Source: Candidatus Epulonipiscioides saccharophilum (lineage in GTDB: Bacteria > Bacillota > Clostridia > Lachnospirales > Cellulosilyticaceae). From it: a stretch of DNA of 64,000 bases. The translations under genes were made by a program, and so were the position numbers. The DNA lies in assembly GCA_002007295.1 (NCBI GenBank), contig LNZM01000156.1:11730-75729 (forward strand), given 5' to 3'. The notes beneath the pieces were generated by a model that was not told where the DNA came from, searched no databases, and saw only the letters and a program-made list of their open reading frames with translations. Every line of letters starts with the position of its first letter. The first letter of the stretch is position 1. This document shows, one piece after another, positions 1,603-59,914 of the stretch.

Positions 1603-2442
1603 ATGAAGCACATTTATTTAAACTTAAAACGTTTTGATTTACCACCAGAGTGCGGTGGAGTCAATAGAATATCCTCAATGAAAGATTGGGGGCCAACCAT
1701 TATCGAGAGTACACAAGGAGAACTCAAAAAATATCCGGATACCGAATTTGTAATGTATTTTCCAGAAGCTCATTTAATAGGAGCAAACAATGCTTTAGAT
1801 AATGATGCGAATTTAGAAATTGGCGCACAAAGTGTGTATCGAGCCGACACAGCTATTGGTGGAAATTTTGGTGCTTTTACAACAAACCGAACTGCGAATG
1901 TTGTTAAAGAAATAGGCGGATCAAGTGTAATTATAGGGCACTGCGAAGAACGTAACGACAAAATGGGTATTATCGCTGAAGCCGGAGTAACCGGGTCAGA
2001 AGCGACACAAGCGGTCAACCGAATTTTAAATGCTCAGATTAAAGAAGCTCAAAAAGCTGGCCTAAAAGTACTTTACTGTATTGGAGAAAAAGAAGAAGAG
2101 CTGGAAAATTGGGACCAAGTTCTAAAAGAGCAGCTAGAGATTGGCCTGGATGGAGTAGACAAAACTAAGGTAGTAATAGCATATGAGCCAATATGGAGTA
2201 TCGGCCCTGGAAAAACACCAGCAGACAAACCGTATATTACGAAAGTAGCCAAATTTGTAAAAGAGATAGCTGGCGAAAATATGGACGTTGTTTATGGCGG
2301 TGGTCTAAAAAGTGATAATGCAAAAATGTTAGCTAGCATTCCAGAAATAGCTGGTGGCCTAATTGCATTAACTAGATTCAGTGGAGAAATCGGTTTTTAT
2401 CCTAATGAATATTTAGAAATAATAGATTTATATTTAAATTAA
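1603..2442 (+). CDS. Divergent triosephosphate isomerase family protein
   Basis: TIM motifs NLK, GHCEER, AYEPIWSIG, YGGGLK; start moved to ATG 1603 behind the AAGGAG RBS (ORF track starts at 1576). Confidence 0.85.
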   Translation: MKHIYLNLKRFDLPPECGGVNRISSMKDWGPTIIESTQGELKKYPDTEFVMYFPEAHLIGANNALDNDANLEIGAQSVYRADTAIGGNFGAFTTNRTANVVKEIGGSSVIIGHCEERNDKMGIIAEAGVTGSEATQAVNRILNAQIKEAQKAGLKVLYCIGEKEEELENWDQVLKEQLEIGLDGVDKTKVVIAYEPIWSIGPGKTPADKPYITKVAKFVKEIAGENMDVVYGGGLKSDNAKMLASIPEIAGGLIALTRFSGEIGFYPNEYLEIIDLYLN

Positions 2443-2607
2443 AGTATGGACGTTGTTTATGACGGTGGACTAAAAAGTGATAATGCAAAAATGTTAGCTA
2501 GCATTCCAGAAATAGCTGATGGCCTAATTGCATTAACTAGATTTAGTGTTGAAATTGGATTTTACCCTAATGAATATTTAGAAATAATAGATTTATATTT
2601 AAATTAA
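2280..2607 (+). repeat. 165-bp-period tandem duplication of the TIM gene 3' end (2280-2442 / 2445-2607)
   Basis: Direct alignment: 9 substitutions over about 163 nt; both copies end in TAA. Confidence 0.97.
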
Positions 2608-2638
2608 TTAAACTAATACCAAAGGAGATTTTAAGAAT

Positions 2639-4099
2639 ATGAATGTATCATTAGAATATGGTCAAGGACTAGTTGACGTAACATTACCGGACAGTGCAGA
2701 TATTTTTATCCCGGGGGAAACAGTACTGGATCCACCTTGTATTCCGGAAGATAAATTAGTTGAAGAAACTTTAAAAGCTATCAGAAACCCATTAGGAATG
2801 GAGCCGTTAACTAAATTAGCTAATGCTGATTCTAAAGTAACGATTGTTTTTCCAGACCGAGTAAAAGGTGGAGAGCAACCAACTTCACATAGAAAAGTAT
2901 CTATAAAGTTAATATTGGAAGAACTTTATAGTGTAGGTGTAAAAAAAGAAAATATTTTATTAATCTGTTCGAATGGATTGCACCGTAAAAATACGGAACA
3001 AGAGCATCGTGGCGTTTTAGGCGATGAACTATATAATCAGTTTGCACCATACGGCCAAGTTATAAATCATGACAGTGAAGACTGGGATCACCTAGTAGAT
3101 TTAGGAACAACCGAAGCCGGAGATCCAGTAATCATGAATAAGTATGTATATGATAGCGACGTGGCGATAATGATCGGCCACACGCAAGGAAATCCGTACG
3201 GAGGATATTCTGGAGGCTATAAGCATTCGTCCACAGGCATAACACACTGGAGATCCATCGCATCACATCACGTACCAAAAGTAATGCACCGAGAAGACTT
3301 TACGCCAGTAAATTCTAAATCTTTAATGCGAAATAAATTCGATGCTATCAGCATGCACATGGAAAAATGCATGGGTAAAAAATTCTTCTGTGTAGACGCT
3401 GTACTTGATACAAAATCTCGTCAAATAGCTATATTCGCTGGTGCACCAGAAGTTATGCAACCCGAATCTTGGAAGGTAGCAGATAAGAGAACTTATGTAC
3501 CATGGGCGAAGAAAAAATATAACGTGTTAGTTTTCGGAATGCCTCAATTTTTCCATTATGGAGATGGCATGGGTACAAATCCGATAATGTTAATGCAAGC
3601 AATCTCTGCACAAATCGTAAGATTAAAAAGAGTATTAGCAGATAACTGCGTAGTAATTTGCTCTTCTATATGTAATGGATTTTTAAACGAAGATTTATGG
3701 CCATATTTAACTCCATTATATGATTTATTTCAAAGAAATGAAATGCAAACGTTACCAGATTTAAATAGATACGGAGAGTATTATGCTACAAACGAAGAAT
3801 ATATCAGACAATACAGATATACGAATGCTTTCCATCCTTTCCATGGATTCTCAATGATATCGTCAGCTCATATTGCGGAAAAAAATACAGCAGCAATCTA
3901 TTTATGTGGCGCAAAAGTTCCTGGATTTGCCAGAGGAATGGGTCTAAAAACTCGTGCTACTATCGAAGACGCATTAGCACATGCTATGAAAACAATAGTT
4001 GGGCCAGAGCCTAACATTCTTGTTTTACCAAAAACATTTAAATGCAGTGCTGTTCATCTTATGATGGAAGGCGACAACCCAAACGTAAGTTCAAAATAA
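2639..4099 (+). CDS. Lactate racemase (LarA) superfamily, nickel-pincer-dependent epimerase/racemase-like protein
   Basis: LarA-like motifs PDRVKGG, NGLHRK, HDSED, GYSGGYK; AAGGAG RBS. Confidence 0.8.
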   Translation: MNVSLEYGQGLVDVTLPDSADIFIPGETVLDPPCIPEDKLVEETLKAIRNPLGMEPLTKLANADSKVTIVFPDRVKGGEQPTSHRKVSIKLILEELYSVGVKKENILLICSNGLHRKNTEQEHRGVLGDELYNQFAPYGQVINHDSEDWDHLVDLGTTEAGDPVIMNKYVYDSDVAIMIGHTQGNPYGGYSGGYKHSSTGITHWRSIASHHVPKVMHREDFTPVNSKSLMRNKFDAISMHMEKCMGKKFFCVDAVLDTKSRQIAIFAGAPEVMQPESWKVADKRTYVPWAKKKYNVLVFGMPQFFHYGDGMGTNPIMLMQAISAQIVRLKRVLADNCVVICSSICNGFLNEDLWPYLTPLYDLFQRNEMQTLPDLNRYGEYYATNEEYIRQYRYTNAFHPFHGFSMISSAHIAEKNTAAIYLCGAKVPGFARGMGLKTRATIEDALAHAMKTIVGPEPNILVLPKTFKCSAVHLMMEGDNPNVSSK

Positions 4100-4113
4100 T
4101 AAAATAAATAATC

Positions 4114-4153
4114 CAAGCCCTTGGACTCTTGATATGAGTTCTGGGGCTTTTTT
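4114..4153 (+). terminator. Intrinsic terminator after the LarA-like gene
   Basis: AAGCCC..GACTC-loop-GAGTTC..GGGGCTTTTTT hairpin plus T tract. Confidence 0.75.
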
Positions 4154-5000
4154 GTTTTGCTTTTTGTAGCAAATTTCTCATCCTTTTCAAAAACACTTCC
4201 TTAATATATTGTTAGAATTATCTGGGAATTATTTTAATGCTGAAAAAATAATAACGGTCGAATAAGCGTTTCCAAGGCAAGACATCCATTTATGTATTGC
4301 ATATGTAGTATAAATGAAATAATAAATCTATTGAAAATAATTCGATATTGTACTAGCATAAAAAATAAGAACATAGCTGAAACATGATCGAAGACTTTCC
4401 GCCTAGCTGACTGAGAAGTTAGATTCAATCCTTTAGAGTTAAGTTAATCATACAGCAATAACATTACAATAAAATAACAGGAAACCTCAAAATTAATGTT
4501 AATTGTGTAATAATTTAAAGTCAAGCGTAAAAGTACAATAATAAAATGATATGTACATATATATAAGGCCATTGTATTTTTAACTGAATCACTTTTGAAT
4601 TCGATATTATAACCACTTAAACTGAAACTCCGTTCTTAGGTATTGACTAAAGAATATATACACTAATATAGTTTCCCTAAGACTTTCGCTATCAATAGTT
4701 CCAACGAATTAATTTAGCGATAGCATTACGCCCGTTTCAAGACACTGTCTATACAAGATTTAAAAAGAAAATAAATGGCATTTATAAATCTTTGTTCCAT
4801 CTTATTATTTGTAGGATTACCTGAAAAAATTAAATTCTTATATTTCGTGAATCGCATTTATAAATCTTTGTACCGTCTTAATGGCTCCTTTTCTCATTAT
4901 TTATGGGATTGCCTGCAAAAATTAAATTATTCTTGAAATTAAATTCTTATGTTAGAGTCAAAGTGCATATAATTAGATTAAAAACATAAGGAGGTTATGG

Positions 5001-7316
5001 ATGCAAGGATTAGTTTATGCAACCAAAAATATTTCCGGTAGTTTTATACCACTTAGTGACTCAATTCACTTTATTTCAAAATTAGAAAACAGTTTTTCAC
5101 AAGACAGATCAGACAAAGATTTACAGGATAATTATATAGAAGGATATCCAAAGATAAAGTTTTTAGAATTAGAAAGATTAGAGCCTATTAAACCTCCTGC
5201 CGATTACTTTTTTGCTGTAATCTCAGGTAGAGTGACAAATTCTTTGCATGAAAAAGCGCCCTTGTTTTACGAAGTTCCAATCGAAGCAATGTTGGCTCAG
5301 TATTTAGAAGCTGTGGCCGAAATTTTATTATACGCAATCAAAATTCAAAAAAAGCCTATTTTGTATAGTGTTTTTGATCATATCCAGTTAGGTGATAACT
5401 ACTTGTTAGATAAACTTATAAGGGACTGGATTAGTACTGTAAATGGGATTGCTATATTTTATAATAGTCATGCTAATGTATATTCTCAAATACAAAATAT
5501 TTTCAATTCAATCAATTATTCTATGGATACCAATGAATTACCAAATCACACATTTTTAAAAATCTCTTCTCTAAAAAACATTTCAGATATAAATCAATTA
5601 TATAAGCCTAAAATTCCAACAAGAACAACCGACAGCTCACTTTACGAAGACCTTTTTTATAGAATAATTCCTGACAGTGAAACAATTTATGCTACTCTCA
5701 ATCCTTTGGCCCCTACGGATCCGGAATTTTACGAGAAGTTAAATTTAACTTATATTCCGCTTCTTCACATTGGTGGACTAATTAACGGCAAGAAAAAAGA
5801 TTTTGATAACGCCAAAAATGCAATACAAGAATATATAAATTTAGAATATGATTTATCAATTTTAACTGCACCTAAAATCACACAAACAACTATAGATAAA
5901 AACTTAATAACTAAGAAACCCTCCATTGATAAAATAGACGACGGCAGTAGTGTGATAATTGGCGTTATAGACACTCAAAATATCCAAATTAATCATCCGA
6001 TGTTGATACACGATGATGGTAAATCCAAGATCGAATATATATTCGATCAGCAAACAGAAGGCGAACTTTACAACGAAGATATCAATGATCTAATCCCTCT
6101 GCAAGAGGATTTAACCAAGTTAACCGACGGTACAGCATTGATGCTTTTGGCTAATGGCTATGACAGCCAAAATTCTACAACTAATTATTTGCCGAATGTT
6201 CACTATGTAGCCGCAAAAATAAAGCCGGCATCAAAAGGGTTGCAAAACATTTTTGGTGGACAATTCAATCCGAAGGCTGTGCTGATAGAAGATATTTTAA
6301 TATGTATAACCAAGTTAATAGAGTACGCAGCAAAAGAGAAAAAACCAATAGTTCTTTGCATACAGTACGGTTCAAATATATCTAGTCATGATGGGACGAC
6401 TTACCTAGAGCGCATTTTAACACAATACGCCGGATTAAGCGGAGTATCCATAGTTAGTACGGTCGGATCCGAAGGGGATAAAAGACATCATAAGCGAAAT
6501 AATACGCACAGCGTTTCGCATGCATCAATAATGATAACTAAGCCGAATCAAAACATTGTTGCAGTAATGTGGACCATGTATCCAGGTGGCGTAAGTGCAA
6601 CGTTGCAAAACAAGTTAACTGGAGAAAAATATAGTTTAGACGATTCGGAAAGTTATGTAGTCGGCAACGGTACACTTTATGTTCAGGGCAAGCAAATTAG
6701 TGCAAATAACGGATCAGTTTATTTAATGTTTAGGTTAGAAAACTTTGATCCAGGCGAATATATAGTAATAAACGATTTAAATCATCCACAAACGGGAATA
6801 GTAGATTTCTGGCTAGCAGAAACTAATTTAAATCCTGCAAGTCACTTAAAAGACTCAGATGCACTCATAACAATTACATCTATTTCAAATATAAATGGAA
6901 CAATATGTGTAGGTGCCTATGATCCTACTACCTTGACAATAACACGAGAATCAGGAAGAGGATATACACGAGTTGGAAATATTTTACCGACATGCGTTAT
7001 TGATGCCGTAAATATATTAGCACCATTAAACGAAATGCAAAGTGTTACGCTAAACGGCCCCTCTGTTGCTTTAGGCTTAATGGCCGGAGAAGCAGCTGGT
7101 ATATATAGCATACTAATAAAAAAACAATCACCTTATTTACCAAATACACCGGTAATGTCATATTGGTTAAGTGCAAATCTAAGTCAATTAGGAACTATAT
7201 CATATCCAAACGAGCGCCAAGGATACGGTATATATACATTGCAAAACCTTAAAAATTGGTTATTAATTAATGGTATTATAAATGGGACTGAAGGGGTTGA
7301 AATGAATGTACTTTAA
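5001..7316 (+). CDS. Degenerate S8 subtilase (CspC-like pseudoprotease) with a ~300-aa N-terminal extension
   Basis: Csp-like segments GVIDTQ, YIFDQQTEG, GSEGDKRHH, CVGAYD, YPNERQGYG; catalytic His replaced (TDGTALM) and GTS changed to GPS; AAGGAGG RBS. Confidence 0.75.
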   Translation: MQGLVYATKNISGSFIPLSDSIHFISKLENSFSQDRSDKDLQDNYIEGYPKIKFLELERLEPIKPPADYFFAVISGRVTNSLHEKAPLFYEVPIEAMLAQYLEAVAEILLYAIKIQKKPILYSVFDHIQLGDNYLLDKLIRDWISTVNGIAIFYNSHANVYSQIQNIFNSINYSMDTNELPNHTFLKISSLKNISDINQLYKPKIPTRTTDSSLYEDLFYRIIPDSETIYATLNPLAPTDPEFYEKLNLTYIPLLHIGGLINGKKKDFDNAKNAIQEYINLEYDLSILTAPKITQTTIDKNLITKKPSIDKIDDGSSVIIGVIDTQNIQINHPMLIHDDGKSKIEYIFDQQTEGELYNEDINDLIPLQEDLTKLTDGTALMLLANGYDSQNSTTNYLPNVHYVAAKIKPASKGLQNIFGGQFNPKAVLIEDILICITKLIEYAAKEKKPIVLCIQYGSNISSHDGTTYLERILTQYAGLSGVSIVSTVGSEGDKRHHKRNNTHSVSHASIMITKPNQNIVAVMWTMYPGGVSATLQNKLTGEKYSLDDSESYVVGNGTLYVQGKQISANNGSVYLMFRLENFDPGEYIVINDLNHPQTGIVDFWLAETNLNPASHLKDSDALITITSISNINGTICVGAYDPTTLTITRESGRGYTRVGNILPTCVIDAVNILAPLNEMQSVTLNGPSVALGLMAGEAAGIYSILIKKQSPYLPNTPVMSYWLSANLSQLGTISYPNERQGYGIYTLQNLKNWLLINGIINGTEGVEMNVL

Positions 7317-20591: not shown

Positions 20592-20863
20592 CGCATCCTT
20601 TGTATTTAAAATTAGTTCATATGTCCAATACAAACGCTATATCCTCTGCTTCTTCTTTTAAATAACTAGGCCGGAATAACATAGGCATCGTCTGTATATA
20701 TGGCCATGTATTGATCTGCTGTGACCATTTTGGCAACTCATCACAAATTATCCTTATTTTAATCGTATTATAAAGTAATTAAAATATGAAGTCAATTTAC
20801 ATTTTTTTATTCTAAACTTATCTACATATTTAAGAGTACAAAATATTTTAAACCTTATAAGAC
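20592..20863 (-). pseudogene. Internally deleted copy of the neighbouring solute-binding protein gene and its upstream region
   Basis: 20592-20713 aligns with about 21190-21312; 20746-20863 aligns with about 22401-22519. Confidence 0.85.
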
Positions 20864-22675: not shown

Positions 22676-22719
22676 CATGAATAACGTAATTAAGAATAAT
22701 TTAAGGAAGGATATTGTCC

Positions 22720-40890: not shown

Positions 40891-41014
40891 TGTCTGTCCT
40901 CCAATATAATTATTTGATTGTTAGGTGCATAATTTCTTATTTTAGAGTAAATGCTCCATGGTCTGAAGCTATCACTATCACTTTTTATCCTCTAATCTAA
41001 TTATCTGATTGTTA
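40838..41014 (-). repeat. 91-bp-period duplication of the tsaC stop / rpiB start junction
   Basis: 40838-40923 versus 40929-41014. Confidence 0.93.
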
Positions 41015-43633: not shown

Positions 43634-43766
43634 TTATGCTATTAAAGTATTTTGAGATTGATCCACGAACTTTACTATTTTAACATCTTTAATACAAAGT
43701 CGATCATCTATGCAGTTAAACCACTTTGTGGTTGATCCATCAACGTTGCTCTTTTAGCATCTCTAG
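43634..43766 (-). repeat. Old, diverged echo of the antiporter 3' end (43634-43692 versus 43708-43766)
   Basis: Ungapped alignment, 43/59 identical, stop codon aligned with stop codon. Confidence 0.7.
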
Positions 43767-44925
43767 CATATAAAATTTTTAAAATAATAGGTGTAGCGAT
43801 AGATGAAATTACGACTAACATTATAACAGCTGAAAATAAGACCGGATCCATAAGACCTGCGTTCAAACCTTTTTGGGCTACTATTAAAGCAACTTCACCA
43901 CGAGCCATCATGCCTACACCAATTTTTAAAGCTTCTTGGTTGTTAAAGCCCATTACTTTTGCACCATAACCACATCCAATTATCTTAGATAATAAAGCTA
44001 TTAATACAAAGGCTACAGTAAATAAGATAACAGGTAGGGTAAATCCATTAATTTCTGTCTTTAAGCCTATACCAGTAAAGAAAATAGGACTAAACAACAT
44101 ATAAGAATTTATATCTATCTTGCCGATAATATATTCAGAAGAAGATAAATTATATAGCACTATACCAGCCACGTAAGCACCAGTGATATCTGCAATTCCG
44201 AAATAATGTTCTGCGATATAAGCAAATAATAAACACACAGCAAAACCATAAATCGGTAATCGTCTTCTATGTGGATCATGGTGGTCTATTACTGTAAACA
44301 CATAATGAACAATTGCGCCTAAAATTATGGACACCACAAAAAATGCTATCGTATTTCCAATTACAACTAGACCACTACTATTAGGATTTTTAAATCCTAT
44401 CACGAACGTAAGTAAAATAATACCAATAACATCGTCAATTATGGCCGCACTCAATATAGCCGTACCGACTTTACCTTTGAGTTTACCCATTTCTCTCAAT
44501 GTTTCTACTGTTATGCTAACTGATGTAGCAGTGATAATAACTCCAATAAATACAGCTTGCAAGAATCCGTCGCTACCTATAGGTGCGAACCCACCACTAT
44601 AGGCTGAATAAAGTAAATATCCGCCACTTAAAGGAACTATCACTCCTAACGCTGCTATGCAAAGTGAGGCTAATCCTGTATTCTTTAGCTCCTTTAAATC
44701 TGTTTCTAAACCGGCTGTAAACATTAACATGATAACACCAAGTTCACCCATTTGTAATAAGAACTCAGTTTCTTTTACCCAACCTAATACATTAGGACCA
44801 ATTATTAATCCGGCAACCAAAATGCCCACTACTTGTGGTAAGTGAAGCCTCCTAAATAATAGACCAAATATTTTAGCTACTAATAAAATAATTGCCAAGT
44901 CTAAGAAAAATCCATAATCTAACAT
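43708..44925 (-). CDS. Cation:proton antiporter (CPA2/NapA-like)
   Basis: LMFTAGLETD, TATSVSIT, ILSAAIIDD, GMMARGEVALI. Confidence 0.92.
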   Translation of the reverse strand: MLDYGFFLDLAIILLVAKIFGLLFRRLHLPQVVGILVAGLIIGPNVLGWVKETEFLLQMGELGVIMLMFTAGLETDLKELKNTGLASLCIAALGVIVPLSGGYLLYSAYSGGFAPIGSDGFLQAVFIGVIITATSVSITVETLREMGKLKGKVGTAILSAAIIDDVIGIILLTFVIGFKNPNSSGLVVIGNTIAFFVVSIILGAIVHYVFTVIDHHDPHRRRLPIYGFAVCLLFAYIAEHYFGIADITGAYVAGIVLYNLSSSEYIIGKIDINSYMLFSPIFFTGIGLKTEINGFTLPVILFTVAFVLIALLSKIIGCGYGAKVMGFNNQEALKIGVGMMARGEVALIVAQKGLNAGLMDPVLFSAVIMLVVISSIATPIILKILYARDAKRATLMDQPQSGLTA

Positions 44926-50572: not shown

Positions 50573-51601
50573 ATGACAACTTATTTAGAAAAAGTCAAAT
50601 CTTTATTGCCCGGCTTTTTAGCAGCTTTTATTATTGCTATGCTAGCCAAATTTTTGGAAGAAGCAATGCCCATTCACCTTATTGGTGCATCAGTTCTTGC
50701 TATTTTTATTGGAATGATTTTAAATTCTATTTATAAACCAGCCATATTAAATAGTGGACTCAAATTTACGTCTAAGAAAATTTTAAAAATTGCTATTATT
50801 TTGTTAGGTGCTTCTCTAAGCATACAAACTATTTTAGAAGTTGGAAAATTATCCTTAATCGTAATGTGTGCAACACTCTTAACATGCTTTGGTGGTGGAT
50901 ATTTTGTTGGAAAAGCACTCGGTTTAAACTGGAAATTATCCAACCTTATTTCTGCTGGAACTGGTATTTGTGGTGGATCTGCTATCGCTGCTATAGCACC
51001 GGTCATCGATGCGGAAGACACCGATATTGCTTACGCGATGTCCGCAACCTTTTTATTCGATATGGCAATGATAATATTATTTCCATTTATGGGTCATGCA
51101 CTCGGCCTAAGCGATATGGCCTATGGCTTATGGGCCGGGACCGCTGTTAACGATACTTCTAGCGTTGTGGCTGCTGGCTATGCTTATAGCGAAGCAGCGG
51201 GCGACTTTGCTACTATGGTTAAGTTAACAAGAACGTTATCAATTATTCCAACTGTTTTAGTTTTTGCATACATAAATGCGAAGCTCAAGCAAAAGGCTAC
51301 TAACAACGAATCAATAACTACTAAAAAAATAAATTTCAACAGTTTATTTCCATATTTTATTGTAGGATTTTTACTTCTTTCTGCTATAAACAGTTTAGGA
51401 TGGATACCTGTATCTCTTTCTGAAACTTTAAAAGAATTGAGTAAATTTTTAATGGTAATGGCCCTAGGAGCCATTGGATATAATACTAGCTTCAAAGAAA
51501 TGAAAAAATCCGGAATTTCGCCTATGATACATGGTTTTATAATTTCTGCGCTAGTTGTTATCGTGGCCATCGGAGTCGAATATTTAATGGGTATGGTCTA
51601 A
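50573..51601 (+). CDS. YeiH family (UPF0324) putative sulfate exporter
   Basis: LGASL, GTGICGGSAIAA, GTAVNDTSSVVA, VKLTR. Confidence 0.92.
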   Translation: MTTYLEKVKSLLPGFLAAFIIAMLAKFLEEAMPIHLIGASVLAIFIGMILNSIYKPAILNSGLKFTSKKILKIAIILLGASLSIQTILEVGKLSLIVMCATLLTCFGGGYFVGKALGLNWKLSNLISAGTGICGGSAIAAIAPVIDAEDTDIAYAMSATFLFDMAMIILFPFMGHALGLSDMAYGLWAGTAVNDTSSVVAAGYAYSEAAGDFATMVKLTRTLSIIPTVLVFAYINAKLKQKATNNESITTKKINFNSLFPYFIVGFLLLSAINSLGWIPVSLSETLKELSKFLMVMALGAIGYNTSFKEMKKSGISPMIHGFIISALVVIVAIGVEYLMGMV

Positions 51602-52240
51602 AATATTTATACCTCCACTAATCAATATAATAAAAGTGGAGGCTTTTTTTATGTGGCTAATCGAATATTTAATGGATGTGCTTTAAAATATTTATACCTC
51701 CACTAATCAATATAATAAAAGTAGAGACTTTTTTATGTAGCTAATCGAATATTTAATTGGTATGCTCCAAAATATTTATACTTCCGCTAATCTGAAAGTG
51801 GAGACTTTTTTTATGTGGCTAATCGAATATTTAATGGGTATGCTCCAAAATATTTATACCTCCACTAATCAATATAATAAAAGTGGATGCTTTTTTTATA
51901 TGGCTAATCGAATATTTAATAGATGTGCTCCAAAATATTTATACCTCAACTAATCAATATAATAAAAGTGGAGACTTTTTTTATGTGGCTACTCGAATAT
52001 TTAATGGGTATGCTCCAAAATATTTATACCTCCACTAATCAATATAATAAAAGTGGAGGCTTTTTTTATGTGGCTAATCGAATATTTAATAGATGTGCTC
52101 CAAAATATTTATACCTTCACTAATCTAAAAGTGAAGACTTTTTTTATGTGGCTAATCGAATATTTAATGGATATGCTTTAAAATCTTTCTATCTCCACTA
52201 ATCAATATAATAAAAGTGGAGACTTTTGTTATGTTGCTAA
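51576..52240 (+). repeat. Eight tandem 78-85-bp copies of the yeiH stop region plus terminator
   Basis: Units at 51576, 51661, 51745, 51823, 51908, 51993, 52078, 52156; each has a CTCCACT..AGTGGAG-type hairpin and T tract. Confidence 0.97.
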
Positions 52241-53899
52241 TTATATAACTAAAAAACTATTTTGAAAATCTAACTTGCCAAAACCTTCTACATTACTTGG
52301 ATAAGTTATTCCCGGACTTCTGCTACCTCCACGAGCCAAAATTTCTTTTGCTACTCTCGTATTAATAGTCGGCATATTTGCTTCTACTATACTCCACTCC
52401 AACAAAAGTGCGCACGCACCAGCTGTTATGGCGGCCCCCACACTTGTCCCTGTATATGTAGACTGAACATCGTTAATCATTGGCCCACTAACAGCTATAC
52501 TCGGTGCTATTATATCCGGCTTGGTTATATTATGTCTCGTAGGCCCTCTACCCGATGCTGCGTATAAACTCTTATCTATCTCGTCATATCCTCCTACAAC
52601 TATAGAATAAATTCCAGTAGCTGGTACACAAACTGTTGTTTCTAAATTCGGTTCGGAAAACCTTGTATTGGCTTCTACAAATCCTGTCCTTGGAATCCAC
52701 ATATCAAAAGTCCCATCTATTATATAATCTCCATAAATATCTATATGCCAAATTCCTGGAATTGGATCTTTTAAGGATATCCTTATAGATTCTCCGCCCG
52801 TATTTGATTCCGGATACTTATATTCTACCGTTACCTTACTCTTTTGCAAACTAAAAGTAAATTCTTCTCTCTTATACGGTTTTAATGGGACTCTTTCTAC
52901 TACTTGCCCAATTGGCGTTCTAATTCCTACACTCATCTTATCAACATTTCGTGTCCATAATGATAAATCAAAACCATTTTCATCCTTAGCCACGTTTATT
53001 TCTACACCACGTTTTTCGCCTTCAGTGACCGTATTTTTATAATGATGCCCTGAGTTGCCCTCGTTCCCAGCAGCTACAACTACGATTATTCCGGGTACTA
53101 AAGTTAATGATTGTATATACCTTTCTATTATATTTGTACCATCGTGGCCTCCAAAATTATTTCCTACTGTTATACATATAACCAGTGGCTTTTCTAATTC
53201 CGTCGCTTTCTTGACTAAATAACTTATTGCTGTCAATATTGACCCATCGCTATATGCTGTAATAGATTCCTTTACATAAAAAATATCCTTTAAACTTTGT
53301 GGCGCTGGTCTCAGCTTTACTATAACTAAATCACTGTCCGGTGCTGCACCAATATATCCGGTATCGCCTATTCTATCACTTCCCGCAGCTAATCCGGCTA
53401 TGTAGGTTCCATGGCCCACATCATCTTTTGTAGCTATCACACTTAACGGATCATCTGCTTTTAACGCTTTATTTAATTCTTCTCTAGAAAATTCGGCTCC
53501 AAATCCAAAGTCAAACGGTGCCTTACCCTCTAAGGTTTGATCCCAAATGCTTAAAATTCTCGTAGTTCCATCCTCATATTTGAACACATCATTCGTATAA
53601 TCTATTCCAGTATCTAAAAATCCTATTAAAACTCCATTCCCTCTTAACTGTCCATATGGATAATTGTGAAAAATTAAAATACCCGCTTCTTGTAATGACT
53701 CCTCGGAATTTAATCCGTATAAATAAGAATTTTGAATATATGCTGACTTTTTTGTTAATAGATCCAAATCCGATTGTCCATCTACAGGAACTTCGACTAT
53801 ATATATTGCATTGTCAATGTGCCTAAAAATTAATTTTGGATATTTTTTGCGAAGTTCTTCTAAATTTTTAAAGTCTTCTATTATATATTCACTGAACAA
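52241..53899 (-). CDS. S8 subtilase, Csp family
   Basis: GFLDTGID, GHGT, AAGNEG, GTSVGAA triad; GFG tail. Confidence 0.88.
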   Translation of the reverse strand: MFSEYIIEDFKNLEELRKKYPKLIFRHIDNAIYIVEVPVDGQSDLDLLTKKSAYIQNSYLYGLNSEESLQEAGILIFHNYPYGQLRGNGVLIGFLDTGIDYTNDVFKYEDGTTRILSIWDQTLEGKAPFDFGFGAEFSREELNKALKADDPLSVIATKDDVGHGTYIAGLAAGSDRIGDTGYIGAAPDSDLVIVKLRPAPQSLKDIFYVKESITAYSDGSILTAISYLVKKATELEKPLVICITVGNNFGGHDGTNIIERYIQSLTLVPGIIVVVAAGNEGNSGHHYKNTVTEGEKRGVEINVAKDENGFDLSLWTRNVDKMSVGIRTPIGQVVERVPLKPYKREEFTFSLQKSKVTVEYKYPESNTGGESIRISLKDPIPGIWHIDIYGDYIIDGTFDMWIPRTGFVEANTRFSEPNLETTVCVPATGIYSIVVGGYDEIDKSLYAASGRGPTRHNITKPDIIAPSIAVSGPMINDVQSTYTGTSVGAAITAGACALLLEWSIVEANMPTINTRVAKEILARGGSRSPGITYPSNVEGFGKLDFQNSFLVI

Positions 53900-54050: not shown

Positions 54051-55730
54051 ATGAAAAAATTTGCTAAATATCTACTAATTATATGCTTACTAAATTATTC
54101 TACTTATCAATCTTTCGGCATAGATAACCTTATTTTAAATAATACAGAAATACTAATAGAAGCAGAAAATGCTCCTCTTATAACCGCCGAAGGATACATA
54201 TTATTACCCATTGCTGAAATCGGTTCTTTACTCAATATTTCGGTTACAAAAAATTTATCTGGCCTAACAGCAAATGGACAGAATATCAATACGAAAGAGC
54301 CAATCACTATAAATGTTGATATATACACAGGAAACGTTACCAATACTGATGATTCGATCCTTTTAGAAAAGGCCTGCGTTATTTATAACAGCCGTGTGTA
54401 TGCTCCACTGAATTTATTTACAGAAATATTTGGATATGAAACAGAATATATCGACGAAACAATATACATTCAAAGTACTCCATTAAATCTGGACAAGCTA
54501 AAAACAACCACAGATTTAGCTACCGAATTAACGGAGACCGACCTAGAAACTACTTTAAGTAATCAAGATTCAGCTACAGAATTATCAGCGACCGACCTAG
54601 AAACTACTTTAAGCAATCAAGATTCAACTGCAGAATTAACGGCGACCAACCTAGAAACTGCTTTAAGTAATCAAAATTCAGCTACAGAATTAACGGCGAT
54701 CGACCTAGAAACTACTTTAAGCAATCCAGATTCAACTGCAAAATTAGCGGCGACCAACCTAGAAACTGCTTTAAGTAATCAAGATTCAGCTACCGAATTA
54801 TCAGCGAACAACCTAGAAACTACTTCAAACAATCACAATTCCGCTACAGAATTAACGACGACCAACCTAGAAACTGCTTTAAGTAATCAAGATTCAGCTA
54901 CCGAATTATCAGCGACCAACCTAGAAACTACTTCAAACAATCACAATTCCGCTACAGAATTAACGGCGCCCGATCTAGAAACTACTTTAAGCAATCAAGA
55001 TTCAACTGTAGAATTAACTGCGCCCGATCTAGAAACTACTTTAAACAATCAAGATTTAGATACTGAATTAACAGCGACCGACTTAAAAACTACTTTAAGC
55101 AAGCAAGGTCCAGTTACAGAATTAAAGTTGGCCAACCTAAAAGCTACTTTAAGCGCAGATTTTATCCAGAAATATTCAACTACAGAATTAAAGACTGCCA
55201 ATCTAGAAACTACTTTAAGCAATCAAGATTCAGCTCCAGAATTAACGGCGCCTGATCTAGAAATTACTTTAAGCAATCAAGATTCAGTTGCAGAATTAAC
55301 AGAGGACGAGCTAAAAACTACTTTAAGCATTCCTAATCAATCCATTACTTCGATCATAGCAGAAACTTTTTTATTGGTTAATCAATATCGTATTGCCTTT
55401 GGCATTGAGCCTTTATTATTAAATCCTGAATTAACGTCTTTAGCACAACTTAGATCGGATGATATGTATAATTTCAATTATTATTCGTACGATAGTCCAA
55501 CCTACGGTATGCCTTTAGAAATGCTAGATACATATGATATCTCTTACAATATAGCTGGGATCAATATCGCTAAAGGTCAAACCTCATCCACTGAAGTTAT
55601 GACAGCTTGGATGAGTAGTTCCGGCCATAGCCAAAATATTCTATCTAGTTCCTATACGGAAATTGGTATCGGTTACAATCCAATCGGAAAATGTTGGACT
55701 CAAATATTCTTAAAGCCACAAATTCAATAA
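54051..55730 (+). CDS. Secreted protein: copper-amine-oxidase-N-like domain, 15 x 18-aa repeats, C-terminal CAP/SCP domain
   Basis: Signal peptide; YILLPI/VYAPL segments; repeat ATELTATDLETTLSNQDS; LVNQYR..SPTYG..WMSSSGHSQNIL. Confidence 0.85.
   Translation: MKKFAKYLLIICLLNYSTYQSFGIDNLILNNTEILIEAENAPLITAEGYILLPIAEIGSLLNISVTKNLSGLTANGQNINTKEPITINVDIYTGNVTNTDDSILLEKACVIYNSRVYAPLNLFTEIFGYETEYIDETIYIQSTPLNLDKLKTTTDLATELTETDLETTLSNQDSATELSATDLETTLSNQDSTAELTATNLETALSNQNSATELTAIDLETTLSNPDSTAKLAATNLETALSNQDSATELSANNLETTSNNHNSATELTTTNLETALSNQDSATELSATNLETTSNNHNSATELTAPDLETTLSNQDSTVELTAPDLETTLNNQDLDTELTATDLKTTLSKQGPVTELKLANLKATLSADFIQKYSTTELKTANLETTLSNQDSAPELTAPDLEITLSNQDSVAELTEDELKTTLSIPNQSITSIIAETFLLVNQYRIAFGIEPLLLNPELTSLAQLRSDDMYNFNYYSYDSPTYGMPLEMLDTYDISYNIAGINIAKGQTSSTEVMTAWMSSSGHSQNILSSSYTEIGIGYNPIGKCWTQIFLKPQIQ
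54519..55328 (+). repeat. In-frame 54-bp coding tandem repeat, about 15 copies
   Basis: 18-aa Thr/Ser/acidic unit counted in the translation. Confidence 0.93.
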
Positions 55731-55782: not shown

Positions 55783-55823
55783 ATTAAGCATAATTTTAAA
55801 ATTAGAAAGAAGAGGTGTACTTT

Positions 55824-56069
55824 ATGAATACTTTTAAAACATCCGGTGTTTGTGCACAAGAAATAAAGTTCGATATAAAAGATAATAAAATCCAGGAAAT
55901 AGAATTTGTAAAAGGTTGTCCAGGAAACACTATGGGCCTTGCTCACTTACTTATCGGCATGACCGTAGATGATGCTATAGCTCGACTTAAGGGCATAGAT
56001 TGCCGTGGCCGTGGAACTTCTTGTCCCGATCAATTGGCTATAGCATTAGAACAATTAGCAACAAAATAA
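55824..56069 (+). CDS. TIGR03905 family TSCPD-domain protein
   Basis: GVCAQEI, FVKGCPGN, LKGIDC..RGTSCPDQLA; start ATG 55824 behind GAGGTG. Confidence 0.9.
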   Translation: MNTFKTSGVCAQEIKFDIKDNKIQEIEFVKGCPGNTMGLAHLLIGMTVDDAIARLKGIDCRGRGTSCPDQLAIALEQLATK

Positions 56070-56127
56070 TTTTAGGCCATGAAATATCTTGTCCCGATCA
56101 ATTGACTATAGAACTAGAATAATTAGT
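56019..56127 (+). repeat. Echo of the TIGR03905 3' end, offset 68 nt
   Basis: TCTTGTCCCGATCAATTG.. at 56019 and 56087. Confidence 0.88.
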
Positions 56128-56166
56128 ATTGATATTACGTCTAAAGGCGTGGGGAGTGTCCAATAA

Positions 56167-56196: not shown

Positions 56197-56217
56197 TTTG
56201 ATAGTTTCCACATCTAA

Positions 56218-56602: not shown

Positions 56603-57778
56603 ATGAAAATCATAATACAAAAATTTGGCGGAACATCTGTGGCTACTGAACAGTCACGCTTATGTGTAATAGCAAAAATATTAAATGCAATCAAATCCGA
56701 CTTTACTCCAATAGTTGTTGTATCAGCCATGGGTCGGTTGGGATCACCTTATGCTACCGATACTTTATTAAATTTCGTAGAAGAAGCTGCCGGAAAAATG
56801 ACTCTTCATGAAACTGATATGCTATTATCTTGCGGCGAATTAATTTCCGCCGTAACTATTGCTACCATGTTAAACAATCAAGGTATCCAATCTCAAGCCT
56901 TTACCGGCGGTCAAGCTGGCATAATAACCGATAACAATCATACAGAAGCTGAACTACTGCGCACAAAACCCAAAAAACTTTTGGAAGCATTAGACAATGG
57001 TATCATTCCAATAGTAGCCGGATTTCAGGGAATCACCATTAATGGTGAAATTACAACTTTGGGCCGAGGCGGTAGTGATACCTCAGCATCAATAATTGGC
57101 GTTAGCGTTCAAGCAGAACGAATTGAAATTTACACTGACGTTGACGGCATCATGACAGCTGACCCAAGAGTATGCAGTAGAGTACACAAAGTAAATAAAT
57201 TAAGTTACAATGAAGTCTTTCAAATGGCTGACTCTGGGGCCAAAGTAATCCATCCCAGAGCTGTTGAATATGCCATGCGCTCGGACATACCATTAATCAT
57301 AAAAAATACATTTTCAGACGACGAAGGTAGCGCAATCATGCGAAGCACTTTTAATTTCATTCACAAAATGGTTACTGCTATAGTCCATCGCTTAGATAGA
57401 GTCCAATACAGTTTAGAACATTCTTCTGTCCGATTATTAGCGGCCATAGCAAACAAAAACATAAGCATAGATTTAATAAATATATTTCCGAATAGGATAT
57501 TGTTTACAATAGACAGTAAAAATCAAATAAAATTAGAAGAGTTACTAAAAGAAGAAAATTGCCAATTTAGCAAAATCGACAACTGTGCTAAAGTAACCGT
57601 AGTGGGCGAATCCATAACCGGTGTCCCTGGAATCATGGCTCGAATAGCTACAACATTGGCCAAGCAAGATATAAGAATACTTCAAACAGCCGATTCTCTT
57701 ACAACTATTAGTTGTTTAATTAAGGAAGAGGAGCTTCCTCGGGCCATTAATTCTCTTCATGAAGAATTCGATTTATAA
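56603..57778 (+). CDS. dapG: Aspartate kinase (DapG-type)
   Basis: QKFGGTSV, VVSAMGR, TLGRGGSD, YTDVDGIMTADPR; ACT tail; dapG..tepA-ylzJ synteny. Confidence 0.9.
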   Translation: MKIIIQKFGGTSVATEQSRLCVIAKILNAIKSDFTPIVVVSAMGRLGSPYATDTLLNFVEEAAGKMTLHETDMLLSCGELISAVTIATMLNNQGIQSQAFTGGQAGIITDNNHTEAELLRTKPKKLLEALDNGIIPIVAGFQGITINGEITTLGRGGSDTSASIIGVSVQAERIEIYTDVDGIMTADPRVCSRVHKVNKLSYNEVFQMADSGAKVIHPRAVEYAMRSDIPLIIKNTFSDDEGSAIMRSTFNFIHKMVTAIVHRLDRVQYSLEHSSVRLLAAIANKNISIDLINIFPNRILFTIDSKNQIKLEELLKEENCQFSKIDNCAKVTVVGESITGVPGIMARIATTLAKQDIRILQTADSLTTISCLIKEEELPRAINSLHEEFDL

Positions 57779-57952
57779 GCCACAAGATGATACGGGACGA
57801 CAACTCCATAAGAACCCCTCAGTCAGCTCCATTGACCAACCACTTAGATATAAATTATCTTCATGAAGCATTCGATTTTTAAGATAATATCTGAAAACTT
57901 ATGTTTTAATTAAGGAAGATTAACTTCCTCGAGCCATTAATCGATTTATAAA
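57713..57952 (+). repeat. Two partial echoes of the dapG 3' end, with a REP-like fragment (57780-57852) between the gene and the echoes
   Basis: TCTTCATGAAG.ATTCGATTT recurs near 57857; TTAATTAAGGAAGA..CTTCCTCG.GCCATTAA recurs near 57905. Confidence 0.85.
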
Positions 57953-58018: not shown

Positions 58019-58048
58019 GTATGAATTGTTATGTTTTTCTGCATACTA
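58019..58048 (+). promoter_or_regulatory. SigG-like forespore promoter upstream of tepA
   Basis: GTATG-18 nt-CATACTA, matching the GnATR-N18-CATnnTA consensus. Confidence 0.55.
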
Positions 58049-58076
58049 ATTAAAATAGATAAAAAGGAGATTGCAC

Positions 58077-58781
58077 ATGCTTATGGATGAAAAACAGCCT
58101 TTTAATAGTACACAAGAACCTAATCAACAACAAAAAAATCAATCTAATCCACATCCAAATCAGCAAGGAGCAGCACCGCAAAAAAGTCAAATACAATGTA
58201 TCACTATTATTGGCCAAATCGAAGGCCACCAAACTATGCCTCCTCAAAACAAAACTACTAAATACGAACATCTGATTCCTCAGTTTTTCGGCTTCCTAGA
58301 AAATCCGGATGTCAAAGGTCTTCTTATTGTTTTAAACACAGTCGGCGGTGACGTTGAAGCCGGCCTCGCCATTGCAGAATTAGTAGCTAGCTTCGGTAAG
58401 CCTGTTGTGTCTTTAGTACTCGGAGGAGCACATTCTATCGGTGTCCCTATTGCTGTAGCAAGTAATTATTCTTTCATCACCCCTAGCGCTACAATGACTC
58501 TTCATCCTGTTAGAATGAACGGTACAGTGTTAGGTGTTGTCCAAACTTATGAATACTTCGATCAAATGCAAGAAAGGATAGTAGAATTCGTAGCTGCTAA
58601 TTCCGAAGTTACATCTAACAGGTTTAGGCAACTTATGCTAGATGTAGGCAAAGTTGCTAAGGACATGGGTACCATATTAGTCGGCCGAGAAGCTGTAGAT
58701 GAAAAAATAATTAATGAAGTCGGCGGATTAACTGAAGCCGTTGCTAAACTTAAAAGCCTAATCGCCGAAACTAATAGTTAA
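58077..58781 (+). CDS. tepA: ClpP-like protease TepA (spore outgrowth family)
   Basis: IIGQIEGH, TTKYEHLIPQ, LNTVGGDVEAGLA, GGAHSIGVP, HPVRMNG; start ATG 58077. Confidence 0.9.
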   Translation: MLMDEKQPFNSTQEPNQQQKNQSNPHPNQQGAAPQKSQIQCITIIGQIEGHQTMPPQNKTTKYEHLIPQFFGFLENPDVKGLLIVLNTVGGDVEAGLAIAELVASFGKPVVSLVLGGAHSIGVPIAVASNYSFITPSATMTLHPVRMNGTVLGVVQTYEYFDQMQERIVEFVAANSEVTSNRFRQLMLDVGKVAKDMGTILVGREAVDEKIINEVGGLTEAVAKLKSLIAETNS

Positions 58782-58830
58782 TAATGAAGTCGACGGATTA
58801 AATAAAGCCGTTTGCAAACTTAAAAGCTTA
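58712..58830 (+). repeat. 70-bp-period echo of the tepA 3' end
   Basis: TAATGAAGTCG.CGGATTAA..AAACTTAAAAGC at 58712 and 58782. Confidence 0.9.
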
Positions 58831-58856
58831 GTTAATATTGAAGGAGGTTATTTCAT

Positions 58857-59057
58857 ATGCATTACAGTATTTTGCCCATTATTTACCCGGAAGAATCTCC
58901 AGAATATGTGGAACTTCAGTATAATGGTTGCAACGTTTTAGCCCGTGTCTCAGATGAGGGCTATATCCTAGAAAGGCTTCACAGCTATGATTATATGGAT
59001 TTCATGAATAGTGATTTCGCACCCGGAACGTTGTTAAACAGTACTTTAATTGATTAG
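58857..59057 (+). CDS. ylzJ: YlzJ-like protein
   Basis: MHYSILP, LERLHSYDYMDFMN..PG; directly after tepA; AAGGAGG RBS. Confidence 0.85.
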   Translation: MHYSILPIIYPEESPEYVELQYNGCNVLARVSDEGYILERLHSYDYMDFMNSDFAPGTLLNSTLID

Positions 59058-59270
59058 GCCCATTCCTTCCACTATATCGTGGAGGGAATATTTTTTAGAA
59101 ATTTTTCATTATATGACGGCTATATCCTAGCAAGGCTTCTTAGCTATGATTATATGGATTTCCTGAATCGTGATTTTACACCCGCAACGTTGTTAAACAG
59201 CACTTTAATTGATTAGGTCCATTCCTTCCACTATGCCATGGAGAGAATATTTTTAAAAAAATTTTCATTA
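58959..59270 (+). repeat. 159-bp-period duplication of the ylzJ 3' half plus terminator
   Basis: 58959-59111 versus 59118-59270, ungapped over the coding part. Confidence 0.95.
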
Positions 59271-59275
59271 GCTTC

Positions 59276-59304
59276 TTGACAGCTTTAAAAATTAATGGTA
59301 CAAT
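59276..59304 (+). promoter_or_regulatory. SigA promoter for tRNA-Leu and rnpB
   Basis: TTGACA-17 nt-TACAAT with extended -10 TG. Confidence 0.8.
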
Positions 59305-59340
59305 CTTCTTCAAATAAGTTTATTCGTGATAAATTTATTT

Positions 59341-59424
59341 GCGACCGTGGCGGAATTGGTATACGCGCAAGACTAAGGATCTTGTGGTCTTCAGGCCGTG
59401 GGGGTTCGAGTCCCCCCGATCGCA
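59341..59424 (+). tRNA. tRNA-Leu(AAG), class II with variable arm, CCA not encoded
   Basis: Anticodon stem CAAGA/TCTTG, loop CT-AAG-GA; T arm GGGGG-TTCGAGT-CCCCC; one C.A mismatch in the acceptor stem. Confidence 0.92.
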
Positions 59425-59427
59425 TTT

Positions 59428-59766
59428 ATAAGTAAATCAGATGGTCGCAGGTATATTTTTTTAATATACGTGAGGAACGTCCGGGCTCTATAGAGCAAAG
59501 GTGCTGGATAACACCCAGTCGAGGCGACTCGAAGGAAAGTGCAACAGAAATAGACCACCCATTTTTTTGGGAACGGATGGAAAGGCGAGGTAAAAGCTCA
59601 CCGTTTTTTAGGCGACTAAAAAAGCCATGTAAACCCCACCTAGAGCAAGACCAAAATAAGACTTAGGTTGCTCGCTAGTCTTGAGTAGGTCGCTAAAATT
59701 TTTAGGCAACTACTAATTTAGATAGATGACTGTCAAATACTGAACCCGGCGTATAGATTTGGTTAT
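59428..59766 (+). ncRNA. rnpB: RNase P RNA (type A-like)
   Basis: GAGGAACGTCCGGGCTC, GGAAAGTGCAACAGAAA, GGTAAACC-like and ACTGAACCCGGCGTA motifs; P1 and P2 pairings traced. Confidence 0.95.
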
Positions 59767-59914
59767 AAATTTCACCCTCTTATATATTTGGGTGATTTTT
59801 TTTGCCCCATTTTAACTTAGATAGATGACTATCAAATGCTAAACCCAGCATATAGATTTGATTATAAATTTTACCCTCTTAAATATATTTGAGTGATTTT
59901 TTTTGCCCTATTTT
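59718..59914 (+). repeat. 99-bp-period echo of the rnpB 3' end plus terminator
   Basis: 59718-59813 versus 59817-59914. Confidence 0.93.

Follow-up and report, generated by a model that had tools for sequence, protein, structure and literature searches.

Short tandem duplications at gene ends in a 64-kb window of a relative of the giant Epulopiscium symbionts

Duplicated gene ends in the window

A 64,000-nt stretch of contig LNZM01000156.1 from Candidatus Epulonipiscioides saccharophilum, referred to here as the window, carries a series of genes, among them a sulfatase gene, thiM, comEB, tsaC, rpiB, yeiH, dapG, tepA, ylzJ and the RNase P RNA gene rnpB, whose ends are repeated beside them as short, imperfect, head-to-tail copies. 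We refer to these copies as gene-end echoes. Genes were called with NCBIfam and Pfam and RNA genes with Rfam and ARAGORN, and these calls agree with the gene names given in a preliminary description of the window made from its sequence. Local direct repeats with an offset of <=700 nt were sought with Tandem Repeats Finder (TRF), a repeat finder and self-BLASTN, which agree on 17 local direct duplications, and a symmetric scan, in which gene termini were compared with their own flanks at both ends, added a weaker echo at an antiporter gene as the 18th event (Table 1). This amounts to 2.66 events per 10 kb, an approximately 30-fold higher density than the ~0.08 per 10 kb obtained by the same self-BLASTN procedure for 80 control loci (~1.45 Mb) around dapG in Clostridia, many of which are just as AT rich. 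All results on echoes refer to the 64-kb window and to short contigs of sister strains.

The window has a G+C content of ~33% and is at most 84% coding, compared with 38% and 92%, respectively, for type B Candidatus Epulonipiscium viviparus. The nearest homologues of dapG, TepA and ComEB are found in Candidatus Epulonipiscioides gigas, in Epulopiscium metagenome-assembled genomes and in Ca. E. viviparus, and the gene order from the HD gene to rpmB is that of the complete Ca. E. viviparus chromosome (L082). Judged by these homologue affinities and the shared gene order, the host is a member of the Epulopiscium clade, related to the giant and extremely polyploid symbionts of surgeonfish.

Each unit, which is 31 to 165 nt long, aligns head to tail to the adjoining gene end or sequence. 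TRF periods are constant, copy numbers range from 2 to 15, as had been described, and most loci hold two copies only. The copies at gene ends are 76 to 94% identical, close to the ~73 to ~95% given before, and the weakest pair is the intergenic duplication E2, at ~71%. Units of separate loci do not match each other in self-BLASTN, which agrees with the earlier statement that they share no sequence, and on this ground a mobile or dispersed repeat family was rejected as the source of the echoes. By self-alignment, all 14 boundary duplications named in the preliminary description exist, with three corrections: the duplication at the solute-binding-protein gene is not a short echo but the relic of a whole-gene copy, the thiM and tsaC events are 5' as well as 3' echoes, and the tepA duplication has its junction just before the ancestral stop codon and alters the C terminus.

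Table 1. Local duplications in the window and Logan contigs of four gut metatranscriptomes (X1 to X4) that cover their junctions or parts of them
Event	Position (strand)	Unit and copies	Sequence duplicated	Spanning contigs
E1	2276..2607 (+)	165 nt x2, 94% identity	Last 54 codons and stop of TIM-barrel-like gene (1576..2442)	X1 2413-2499, 0 mismatches
E2	4774..4931 (.)	Offset 76-92 nt, 71-85% identity	Imperfect direct duplication in stop-rich non-coding DNA	
E3	20612..20862 (-)		Relic of whole-gene tandem copy of solute-binding-protein gene (20924..22375)	
E4	24104..24256 (+)	76 nt x2	Last 5 codons and stop of sulfatase gene (22714..24123)	X2 24113-24659; X3 23800-24204
E5	28927..29095 (-)	52 nt x3	5' echo of iron alcohol dehydrogenase (ADH) gene: ribosome binding site (RBS) and first 12 codons	X1 28819-29083; X4 28609-29034 (6%-divergent strain)
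E6	32701..32850 (+)	64 nt x2	Intergenic, in 830-nt gap upstream of thiM	
E7	33775..34271 (+)	103 nt x4 and one 79-nt copy	Last 34 codons and stop of thiM (33035..33877)	X1 34087-35825
E8	38590..38772 (-)	Offset 125 nt	Duplication upstream of wecA/mraY-like gene (37500..38570)	X2 38116-38844
E9	38795..39260 (-)	31 nt x15	Array beginning within last 10 codons of dCMP deaminase gene comEB (39217..39663)	
E10	40835..41016 (-)	91 nt x2	Overlapping tsaC stop and rpiB start (GTGA)	X1 40233-41500, 1 mismatch
E18	43635..43774 (-)	~76 nt x2, ~76% identity	Na+/H+ exchanger (antiporter) gene (43708..44925)	X1 43582-44796; X4 43575-43885
E11	51576..52241 (+)	85/78 nt x8	Last 8 codons and stop of yeiH (50573..51601)	
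E12	54502..55333 (+)	54 nt (18 codons) x15	In-frame array inside YkwD-family gene (54051..55730)	
E13	56007..56142 (+)	68 nt x2	TIGR03905/TSCPD gene (55815..56069); junction 5 nt past stop	X1 55971-56499, 1 mismatch
E14	57715..57951 (+)	Two degenerate echoes	Last ~70 nt of dapG (56603..57778)	
E15	58703..58842 (+)	70 nt x2	End of tepA (58071..58781)	X1 57975-59027
E16	58954..59271 (+)	159 nt x2	End of ylzJ (58857..59057) with 33 codons and stop, terminator and a further 16 nt	
E17	59714..59914 (+)	99 nt x2	Last ~55 nt of rnpB (59429..59769) and terminator	

Clean 3' echoes, in which the unit includes the stop codon or the RNA 3' end, are found at the TIM-like, sulfatase, comEB, antiporter, yeiH, TIGR03905, dapG, ylzJ and rnpB genes. 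The echo of the TIM-like gene is in frame and its junction lies at the stop codon, while that of comEB lies inside the stop codon, with GCTA as microhomology. At the antiporter gene, positions 43774 to 43709 align with an echo at 43698 to 43635, and the junction is located 9 nt past the stop. The sulfatase unit also spans a hairpin and the RBS of the gene that follows, ending 5 nt short of its ATG (24261). Some units extend beyond a terminator: that of yeiH includes an intrinsic terminator and 10 nt past its T-run, with the array reaching the stop codon of the convergent cspC-like gene, and that of rnpB, a gene end that is single copy in Ca. E. viviparus, extends 9 nt past the T-run. The dapG unit is ~104 nt long, including ~25 nt past the stop; one of its two echoes has a 17-nt deletion, and the echoes, which are interrupted by a dispersed hairpin element, are fuller in the sister strain L081. 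At tepA, the E. gigas sequence and the fuller echo of the sister strain show that the junction lies directly before the ancestral stop codon, so that copy 2 supplies a new stop; the protein end has changed from AEA to AETNS, and the ancestral end is now found in the echo, where it runs into the RBS of ylzJ.

Two events are 3' and 5' echoes at once, because the stop codon of one gene overlaps the start codon of the next. The thiM unit also contains the RBS, the start and 6 initial codons of the thiE/thiD gene, which overlaps thiM and has its true start in the last copy (34252). At tsaC/rpiB, the upstream copy holds the true end of tsaC and a 14-codon 5' fragment of rpiB, and the downstream copy holds a 3' fragment of tsaC and the true start of rpiB. 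The only pure 5' echo is that of the ADH gene, the middle copy of which forms a mini-open reading frame (mini-ORF) of 16 codons that terminates 1 nt short of the true ATG (28968).

Three events lie wholly in intergenic DNA. E2 lies upstream of ORF 5001..7316, E6 lies upstream of thiM, and E8 takes in the distal end of the comEB array and is a later, nested event. The two E6 copies each encode a small basic ORF (MKNSIAYEKSRYKFRRK and MKNATTYEKSRYKLKRTKSNKVII, each followed by a stop codon), and the surrounding 830 nt are without a long ORF. The sole intragenic duplication in the window is the array in the YkwD-family gene, which is in frame; no out-of-frame internal event is present. The relic E3 consists of a copy of the upstream region of the solute-binding-protein gene (22403-22519) joined to a copy of its codons 361-396 (21189-21313), with ~1.1 kb deleted between them.

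Independent contigs, relatives and sister strains

Independent evidence was obtained from Logan contigs of four public gut metatranscriptomes, and at least 11 junctions are spanned by independent short-read contigs from the four runs. The junctions at the TIM-like, ADH, tsaC/rpiB, antiporter, TIGR03905 and tepA genes are crossed with 0 to 2 mismatches, contigs over the sulfatase junction carry up to 9 mismatches, and parts of the thiM, comEB and YkwD arrays are covered by RNA contigs. Copy 2 of the ylzJ unit, copy 2 of the rnpB unit and the interior of the yeiH array are without such confirmation because they lie past terminators and are not transcribed. In agreement with this, RNA depth ends at ~59730-59800 at rnpB and falls to zero inside the yeiH array, whose outer terminators stop both convergent transcripts. 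RNA "skip" joints in the solute-binding-protein gene and in the dispersed element were attributed to paralogues and multicopy sequence and were rejected as duplications. The same metatranscriptomes contain two haplotypes that are 6 to 9% apart (for example, at 39832-40262, 50921-51508 and 41485-41794), sometimes at nearly equal depths (40.1 versus 41.1 and 23.7 versus 23.6), and these may represent strains living together or chromosome copies that have diverged.

The ancestral state was examined for the TIGR03905, dapG, tepA, ylzJ, rnpB, yeiH and YkwD genes; the TIM-like, sulfatase, ADH, thiM, tsaC/rpiB and antiporter loci and the comEB array stand outside this comparison. The ends of the TIGR03905, dapG and tepA genes are compact and single copy in Ca. 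E. viviparus, E. gigas and other relatives, the ends of ylzJ, rnpB and yeiH are single copy in Ca. E. viviparus, and the YkwD gene is free of the array in E. viviparus and E. gigas, its orthologues encoding 281 to 284 amino acids compared with 559 in the window. The spacers differ in the same way. That between TIGR03905 and dapG measures 7 to 146 nt in relatives and 533 nt in the window, where a conserved terminator and the dapG promoter can be recognized at its far end. The spacer between dapG and tepA is ~70 to 100 nt long in E. gigas (L001) and in L011 and 75 to 265 nt in remoter loci, compared with 292 nt in the window, and tepA and ylzJ are separated by 15 nt in Ca. E. viviparus and overlap in E. 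gigas, compared with 75 nt in the window. No gene-end echo was found in ~90 kb of DNA from other members of the Epulopiscium clade (Ca. E. viviparus, E. gigas and E. fishelsonii), including orthologous gene ends, and none of the echoes of the window is present in the syntenic 20.5 kb of type B. Repeats of other kinds are few in the ~90 kb: one lies in coding sequence, one is a small CRISPR array and one a (CA)n tract, and E. gigas has a perfect 220-bp duplication. These comparisons indicate that the echoes are a derived state, specific to the lineage of the window. The host being highly polyploid had been put forward as a possible reason for the duplications; the clade assignment agrees with this, but polyploidy by itself is insufficient to produce echoes, since polyploid relatives are without them in ~90 kb.

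Two of the repeats in these relatives deserve a separate description. Single-cell contigs L001 and L002 of E. gigas are identical over 21 kb except for the perfect 220-bp tandem duplication, which is intragenic (L002 1161-1604) and shifts the reading frame; it either arose as an artefact of amplification or assembly or disrupts the gene on some chromosome copies of one polyploid cell. In Epulopiscium sp. Nele67-Bin005 (L003 8641-8877 and 13065-13733), a small CRISPR-like array with the 31-nt repeat GTTTCAATCCTTATTATATTGGATTATTAAC and a period of 66 lies downstream of an ORF, and (CA)n tracts near the contig end resemble fish DNA.

Sister strains, represented by contigs L081 and L086, are 6 to 8% divergent from the window, and comparison with them reveals gain and loss of duplications. 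The tepA, dapG, tsaC/rpiB and comEB echoes are common to the window and these strains. The 159-nt ylzJ echo is absent from L081, and three-way site patterns (13, 6 and 5) are compatible with a duplication either before or just after the strain split. Conversely, in sister-strain contigs from two runs, the AEC transporter gene is followed by a 3' echo of 284 nt (24930-25213), with a 5-nt filler and a junction 2 nt past the stop, of which the window has no trace. Sister contigs also have an in-frame 87-nt duplication in the M18 aminopeptidase gene (42102-42179), which ends 6 codons before the stop and is missing from the window. The dCMP deaminase ends in GES in the window (39217-39260) and in VAN in L086 (1690-1741), which has at least two units; this difference is a swap between unit variants of the 31-nt array, and the array thus feeds variation into the C terminus of the enzyme. 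A 7-nt unit-type variant of the yeiH array is found in other strains.

Between the window and L081, the echoes of dapG and tepA, to which this measurement is confined, are 73 to 81% identical and have many indels. Third codon positions are 81 to 87% identical, and coding DNA and functional or promoter spacers are 93 to 95% identical. Since the echoes diverge at least as fast as synonymous sites and accumulate indels, they appear to be unconstrained relics that are gained and lost over time. Over 187 echo mismatches, the echo base is A in 34%, T in 29%, C in 20% and G in 16% of cases, and 98 of the 187 are transitions, so that the changes are AT biased. The earlier proposal that the process has recurred over a long time holds in part: most copies are 80 to 90% identical, and only one pair in the window differs by 6% or less (P of ~0.02 against a uniform age distribution). 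This scarcity of young pairs may reflect an episodic burst or the fact that the assembly is a consensus.

Origin of the echoes and of their 3' excess

We favour the explanation that the echoes are ordinary tandem duplications of the slippage type, which were retained or arose unusually often in one lineage and were then filtered by selection, and we would give this reading a probability of roughly 0.6. Short tandem duplications would arise from slippage during replication, from template switching or from unequal exchange between copies of the chromosome, and such an event breaks a gene only when it both begins and ends within it. The expected survivors would hence be duplications that span a gene boundary, lie wholly in a spacer or are in frame within a tolerant linker, and all three kinds are present in the window. 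The redundant copy would be without function and would then decay. This is the null model of the preliminary description, frequent tandem duplication combined with selection, and it fits the in-frame state of the intragenic array, the neutral echoes and the compact outgroups. Further signs of such a filter are the mini-ORF at the ADH gene, which stops just short of the true ATG, the 87-nt M18 duplication, which keeps the frame, and the ends of TepA and ComEB, which have changed without loss of a domain. Junction microhomology amounts to 2 nt (AA) at the TIM-like gene, 4 nt at comEB and possibly 7 to 9 nt at tsaC/rpiB; in AT-rich DNA whose copies have diverged by 6 to 20%, such matches are not decisive. 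As to why this lineage is affected, we infer either a raised rate of duplication or weak purging.

The excess of echoes at 3' ends is real in the window. In the symmetric scan, 12 of 46 3' ends and 3 of 47 5' ends have an echo (Fisher p=0.012), and when the two shared events are set aside, 10 3'-only events face a single 5'-only event (p=0.004 under a symmetric null). Selection could produce much of this asymmetry. A 3' echo has neither an RBS nor a start codon and would be silent, whereas a 5' echo has both, would be translated and may interfere with the true start. A junction inside an RBS would kill the downstream gene, while the last few codons of a gene would tolerate replacement, as they did in tepA. 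The harm done by 5' echoes, the lethality of RBS junctions for the gene concerned and the tolerance of C-terminal codons would together account for most of the 3' excess. Events were placed at random positions on an echo-collapsed gene map, and ~22% of the placements were tolerated. With a strictly symmetric filter, 3'-only and 5'-only events were about equally frequent in this simulation. When an intact RBS was required and the last 10 to 15 codons were allowed to change, ~65 to 70% of such events were expected to be 3' only, and the observed ratio of 10:1 then has p=0.06-0.11; the simulation leaves out the cost of translated 5' echoes, which carry an RBS and a start across the true start. 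For an assumed 3' share of 65 to 75%, the ratio has p=0.06-0.20. With so plausible an asymmetry of selection, a special 3' mechanism is not required, and selection is sufficient for the bias without being proven as its cause. The view that the 3' bias exceeds what a filter can produce, as suggested before, is therefore upheld as to the excess itself and weakened as to its cause.

Several observations weigh against this explanation. The 3' excess is significant if the filter is strictly symmetric (p=0.004-0.012), and the selective asymmetry invoked to account for it, although plausible, is one that we infer. Intergenic-only events make up 3 of 15 to 16, compared with ~45 to 50% in the simulation; this deficit may stem from spacers having once been shorter and from more rapid decay where neither copy is constrained. 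Slippage and a filter leave the absence of echoes from polyploid relatives unaccounted for, and we can name no selective reason for the clustering of junctions at stop codons or past terminators. The AEC echo of the sister strains, which lies outside the sample in which the clustering was seen, also has its junction near the stop. Finally, the evidence comes from 64 kb only.

The clustering is the chief support for a termination-linked mutational hotspot, in which breakpoints would be favoured at the stop codon or just past the terminator. In one possible route, R-loops or stalled complexes on the untranslated 3' segment would block replication forks and the forks would restart by template switching; the 3' bias would then be mutational and not selective. 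The offsets of the junctions from the stop are bimodal, with values of 0, 0, 0, -2, +5 and +9 on one side, +43, +55, +56 and +59 on the other, and one of ~+25. Six of the 11 3' junctions lie within -3 to +9 nt of the stop (Poisson-binomial P=0.003-0.014, calculated post hoc), and of the four located 43 to 59 nt downstream, three lie 9 to 16 nt past a T-run and one, that of the sulfatase gene, just before the next start codon. The 10:1 ratio and the position of the junction in the sister-only AEC echo (+2) point the same way. However, the pattern was noticed after the fact in 11 to 12 events, and E5, E8, E2, E6 and E12 arose away from 3' ends. The adjacent, same-strand genes tepA and ylzJ display both junction modes, so that replication direction was rejected as the factor that sorts them, and hairpin-base stalling was rejected as the cause of the stop-codon junctions, which have no hairpin beside them. 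In addition, relatives with the same gene ends and terminators are free of echoes. We therefore regard a hotspot of this kind as unlikely. The earlier hint at a termination-linked mechanism thus gains something from the clustering, but no special mechanism is required. A version confined to the lineage, with a hotspot at the ends of translation or transcription (e.g., at R-loop edges) that was unmasked in an extremely polyploid cell by a lost or changed repair, RNase H, Rho or fork-restart function, seems slightly more doubtful still. If the clustering were true genome-wide, it would suggest that DNA duplication is tied to the sites where gene expression ends, a connection for which we found no description in bacteria.

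It is also conceivable, but improbable, that the arrays are kept for a function, be it terminator insulation, the binding of a chromosome-organizing protein or a reservoir of C-terminal variation. The yeiH array places eight terminators between convergent genes and stops RNA at its outer units, the C terminus of ComEB varies between strains by a swap of array units, and roles of this kind have been considered speculatively for the unrelated imperfect direct-repeat blocks of type B (PMC10756260). The echoes nevertheless diverge at least as fast as synonymous sites and gather deletions, the inner array units are not transcribed, the units have no common motif, most echoes consist of just two copies, and close strains differ in their presence or absence.

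A very improbable origin is RNA-templated, with 3' parts of transcripts being reverse transcribed and integrated beside their source, as had been suggested; a diversity-generating retroelement (DGR) would be a special case. Most echoes do derive from the 3' ends of genes that are transcribed, the non-coding rnpB among them, and a gene end with a diverged copy closely downstream that differs by point substitutions resembles the variable-repeat/template-repeat pair of a DGR. However, units that contain a terminator run 9 to 16 nt past the T-run and hence beyond the transcript end, half of the junctions lie at stop codons within operons and not where transcripts end, and neither head-to-tail arrays of up to 15 copies nor a 5' echo would be expected. 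No reverse transcriptase domain was found among the ORFs of the window with Pfam and NCBIfam, a search that covered the window only. A DGR was rejected on this ground and because the 187 scored mismatches are not confined to adenine; moreover, the window copies abut one another and come from one RNA gene and over a dozen housekeeping genes that are unrelated to each other. An artefact, whether of assembly or of the consensus, in a sample that is rich in repeats, polyploid and made up of several strains, raised earlier as the case that would undo the finding, is the least probable explanation of all and was not borne out: the untranscribed parts of E16, E17 and E11 are without independent read support and E16 is missing from L081, but copies that differ by 6 to 24% cannot be collapsed or expanded reads, and both the short-read contigs of four runs and the separate sister-strain contigs support real duplications.

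In the literature searched, gene-end echoes were found described neither for Epulopiscium nor for any other bacteria. Type B Candidatus Epulopiscium viviparus has blocks of imperfect direct repeats, with units of typically 18 or 21 bp, which are mutually unrelated and are intergenic or lie inside genes for repeat proteins (PMC10756260). These blocks come from the same clade and are likewise tandem, imperfect and without a common sequence, and the YkwD array, with its 54-nt units, and the comEB array, with its 15 units of 31 nt, come close to them. They are not described as copies of an adjoining gene end, and the other echoes, with units of 31 to 165 nt in mostly two copies, do not resemble them. 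Elements of the REP, MITE or Correia type also occupy 3' intergenic space, often with hairpins, and the window has one family of this kind, the dispersed hairpin element (9217, 16633, 35754 and 57781), but echo units are local and each derives from its own neighbouring gene. A CRISPR array was rejected, as the whole unit repeats without unique spacers and the true small array in L003 looks different, and so was target-site duplication, as the copies abut, with the exception of dapG, where the dispersed hairpin element separates the first echo from the gene.

The nearest parallel may be found in multicopy organelle genomes, where a tandem duplication is followed by decay of one of its copies. 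Tandem duplication followed by random loss in vertebrate mitochondrial DNA is usually explained by slipped-strand mispairing. In both cases, head-to-tail duplications lie over gene boundaries, there are many genome copies per cell, one copy decays and length variants are polymorphic. The window differs in having shorter units (31 to 165 nt) with partial genes at many independent loci of a bacterial chromosome, no change in gene order, a strong 3' excess and junctions at stop codons or terminators.

If the echoes are indeed ordinary duplications sorted by selection, the window would be an unusually clear natural record of the small duplications that a bacterial genome tolerates. That one lineage of giant polyploid gut symbionts accumulates echoes while polyploid relatives are compact bears on how ploidy, drift and repair shape genome architecture. 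In practical terms, echoes inflate spacers, create false small ORFs and repeated terminators and alter C termini (tepA and comEB), and they will confuse annotation and short-read assembly.

Other sequences in and around the window

Rfam at gathering scores yielded only rnpB and three tRNAs in the window, with no credible match in the expanded spacers. Even at E<=1, neither a TPP riboswitch upstream of thiM-thiED (32205-33034) nor a lysine riboswitch upstream of dapG (56070-56602) was found, and a comparison of the ThiE/ThiD protein with metagenome contigs returned no relative. Look-ups of window proteins by exact sequence likewise gave no recorded match.

In Ca. E. viviparus (L082 4232-5531), yeiH and the convergent cspC-like gene are separated by scpA and scpB. 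In the window, this place (51601-52241) is taken by the terminator array of eight 85-nt units, and scpA and scpB are absent from the position and from the whole 64 kb. Three tandem Csp-like subtilase paralogues, 24 to 39% identical, are located at 5001-11080; together with the cspC-like gene (52241-53899), they form an old gene-scale tandem family that is distinct from the short echoes.

The dispersed element mentioned above is GC rich and has two hairpins with the core CTCAGTCAGCTTCGCTGACAGCTCTCCTAAAAGGAGAGC. Copies are located at 9217-9270 (+), 16633-16700 (-) and 35754-35845 (-), with a partial copy at 57781-57828 (+) and a diverged one at ~56225-56270 (+). The element always lies just downstream of a gene, and one copy is placed between the dapG stop and the first dapG echo. 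It occurs in metatranscriptome contigs at very high depth and with many different flanks and is therefore taken to be multicopy in the genome. A further 100 nt of the window (4649-4748), in decayed non-coding DNA, match an extremely abundant RNA (word depth of up to ~27,000) that occurs in each of the four metatranscriptomes, flanked on either side by different sequence, and has no Rfam match. Finally, the TIGR03905 echo is separated from the conserved terminator and the dapG promoter by an insertion of ~380 nt (56143-56520) that none of the relatives has. A strong terminator on the minus strand (56194-56171) and the diverged copy of the dispersed hairpin element lie within this insertion, which may represent a small RNA gene or what is left of a mobile element.

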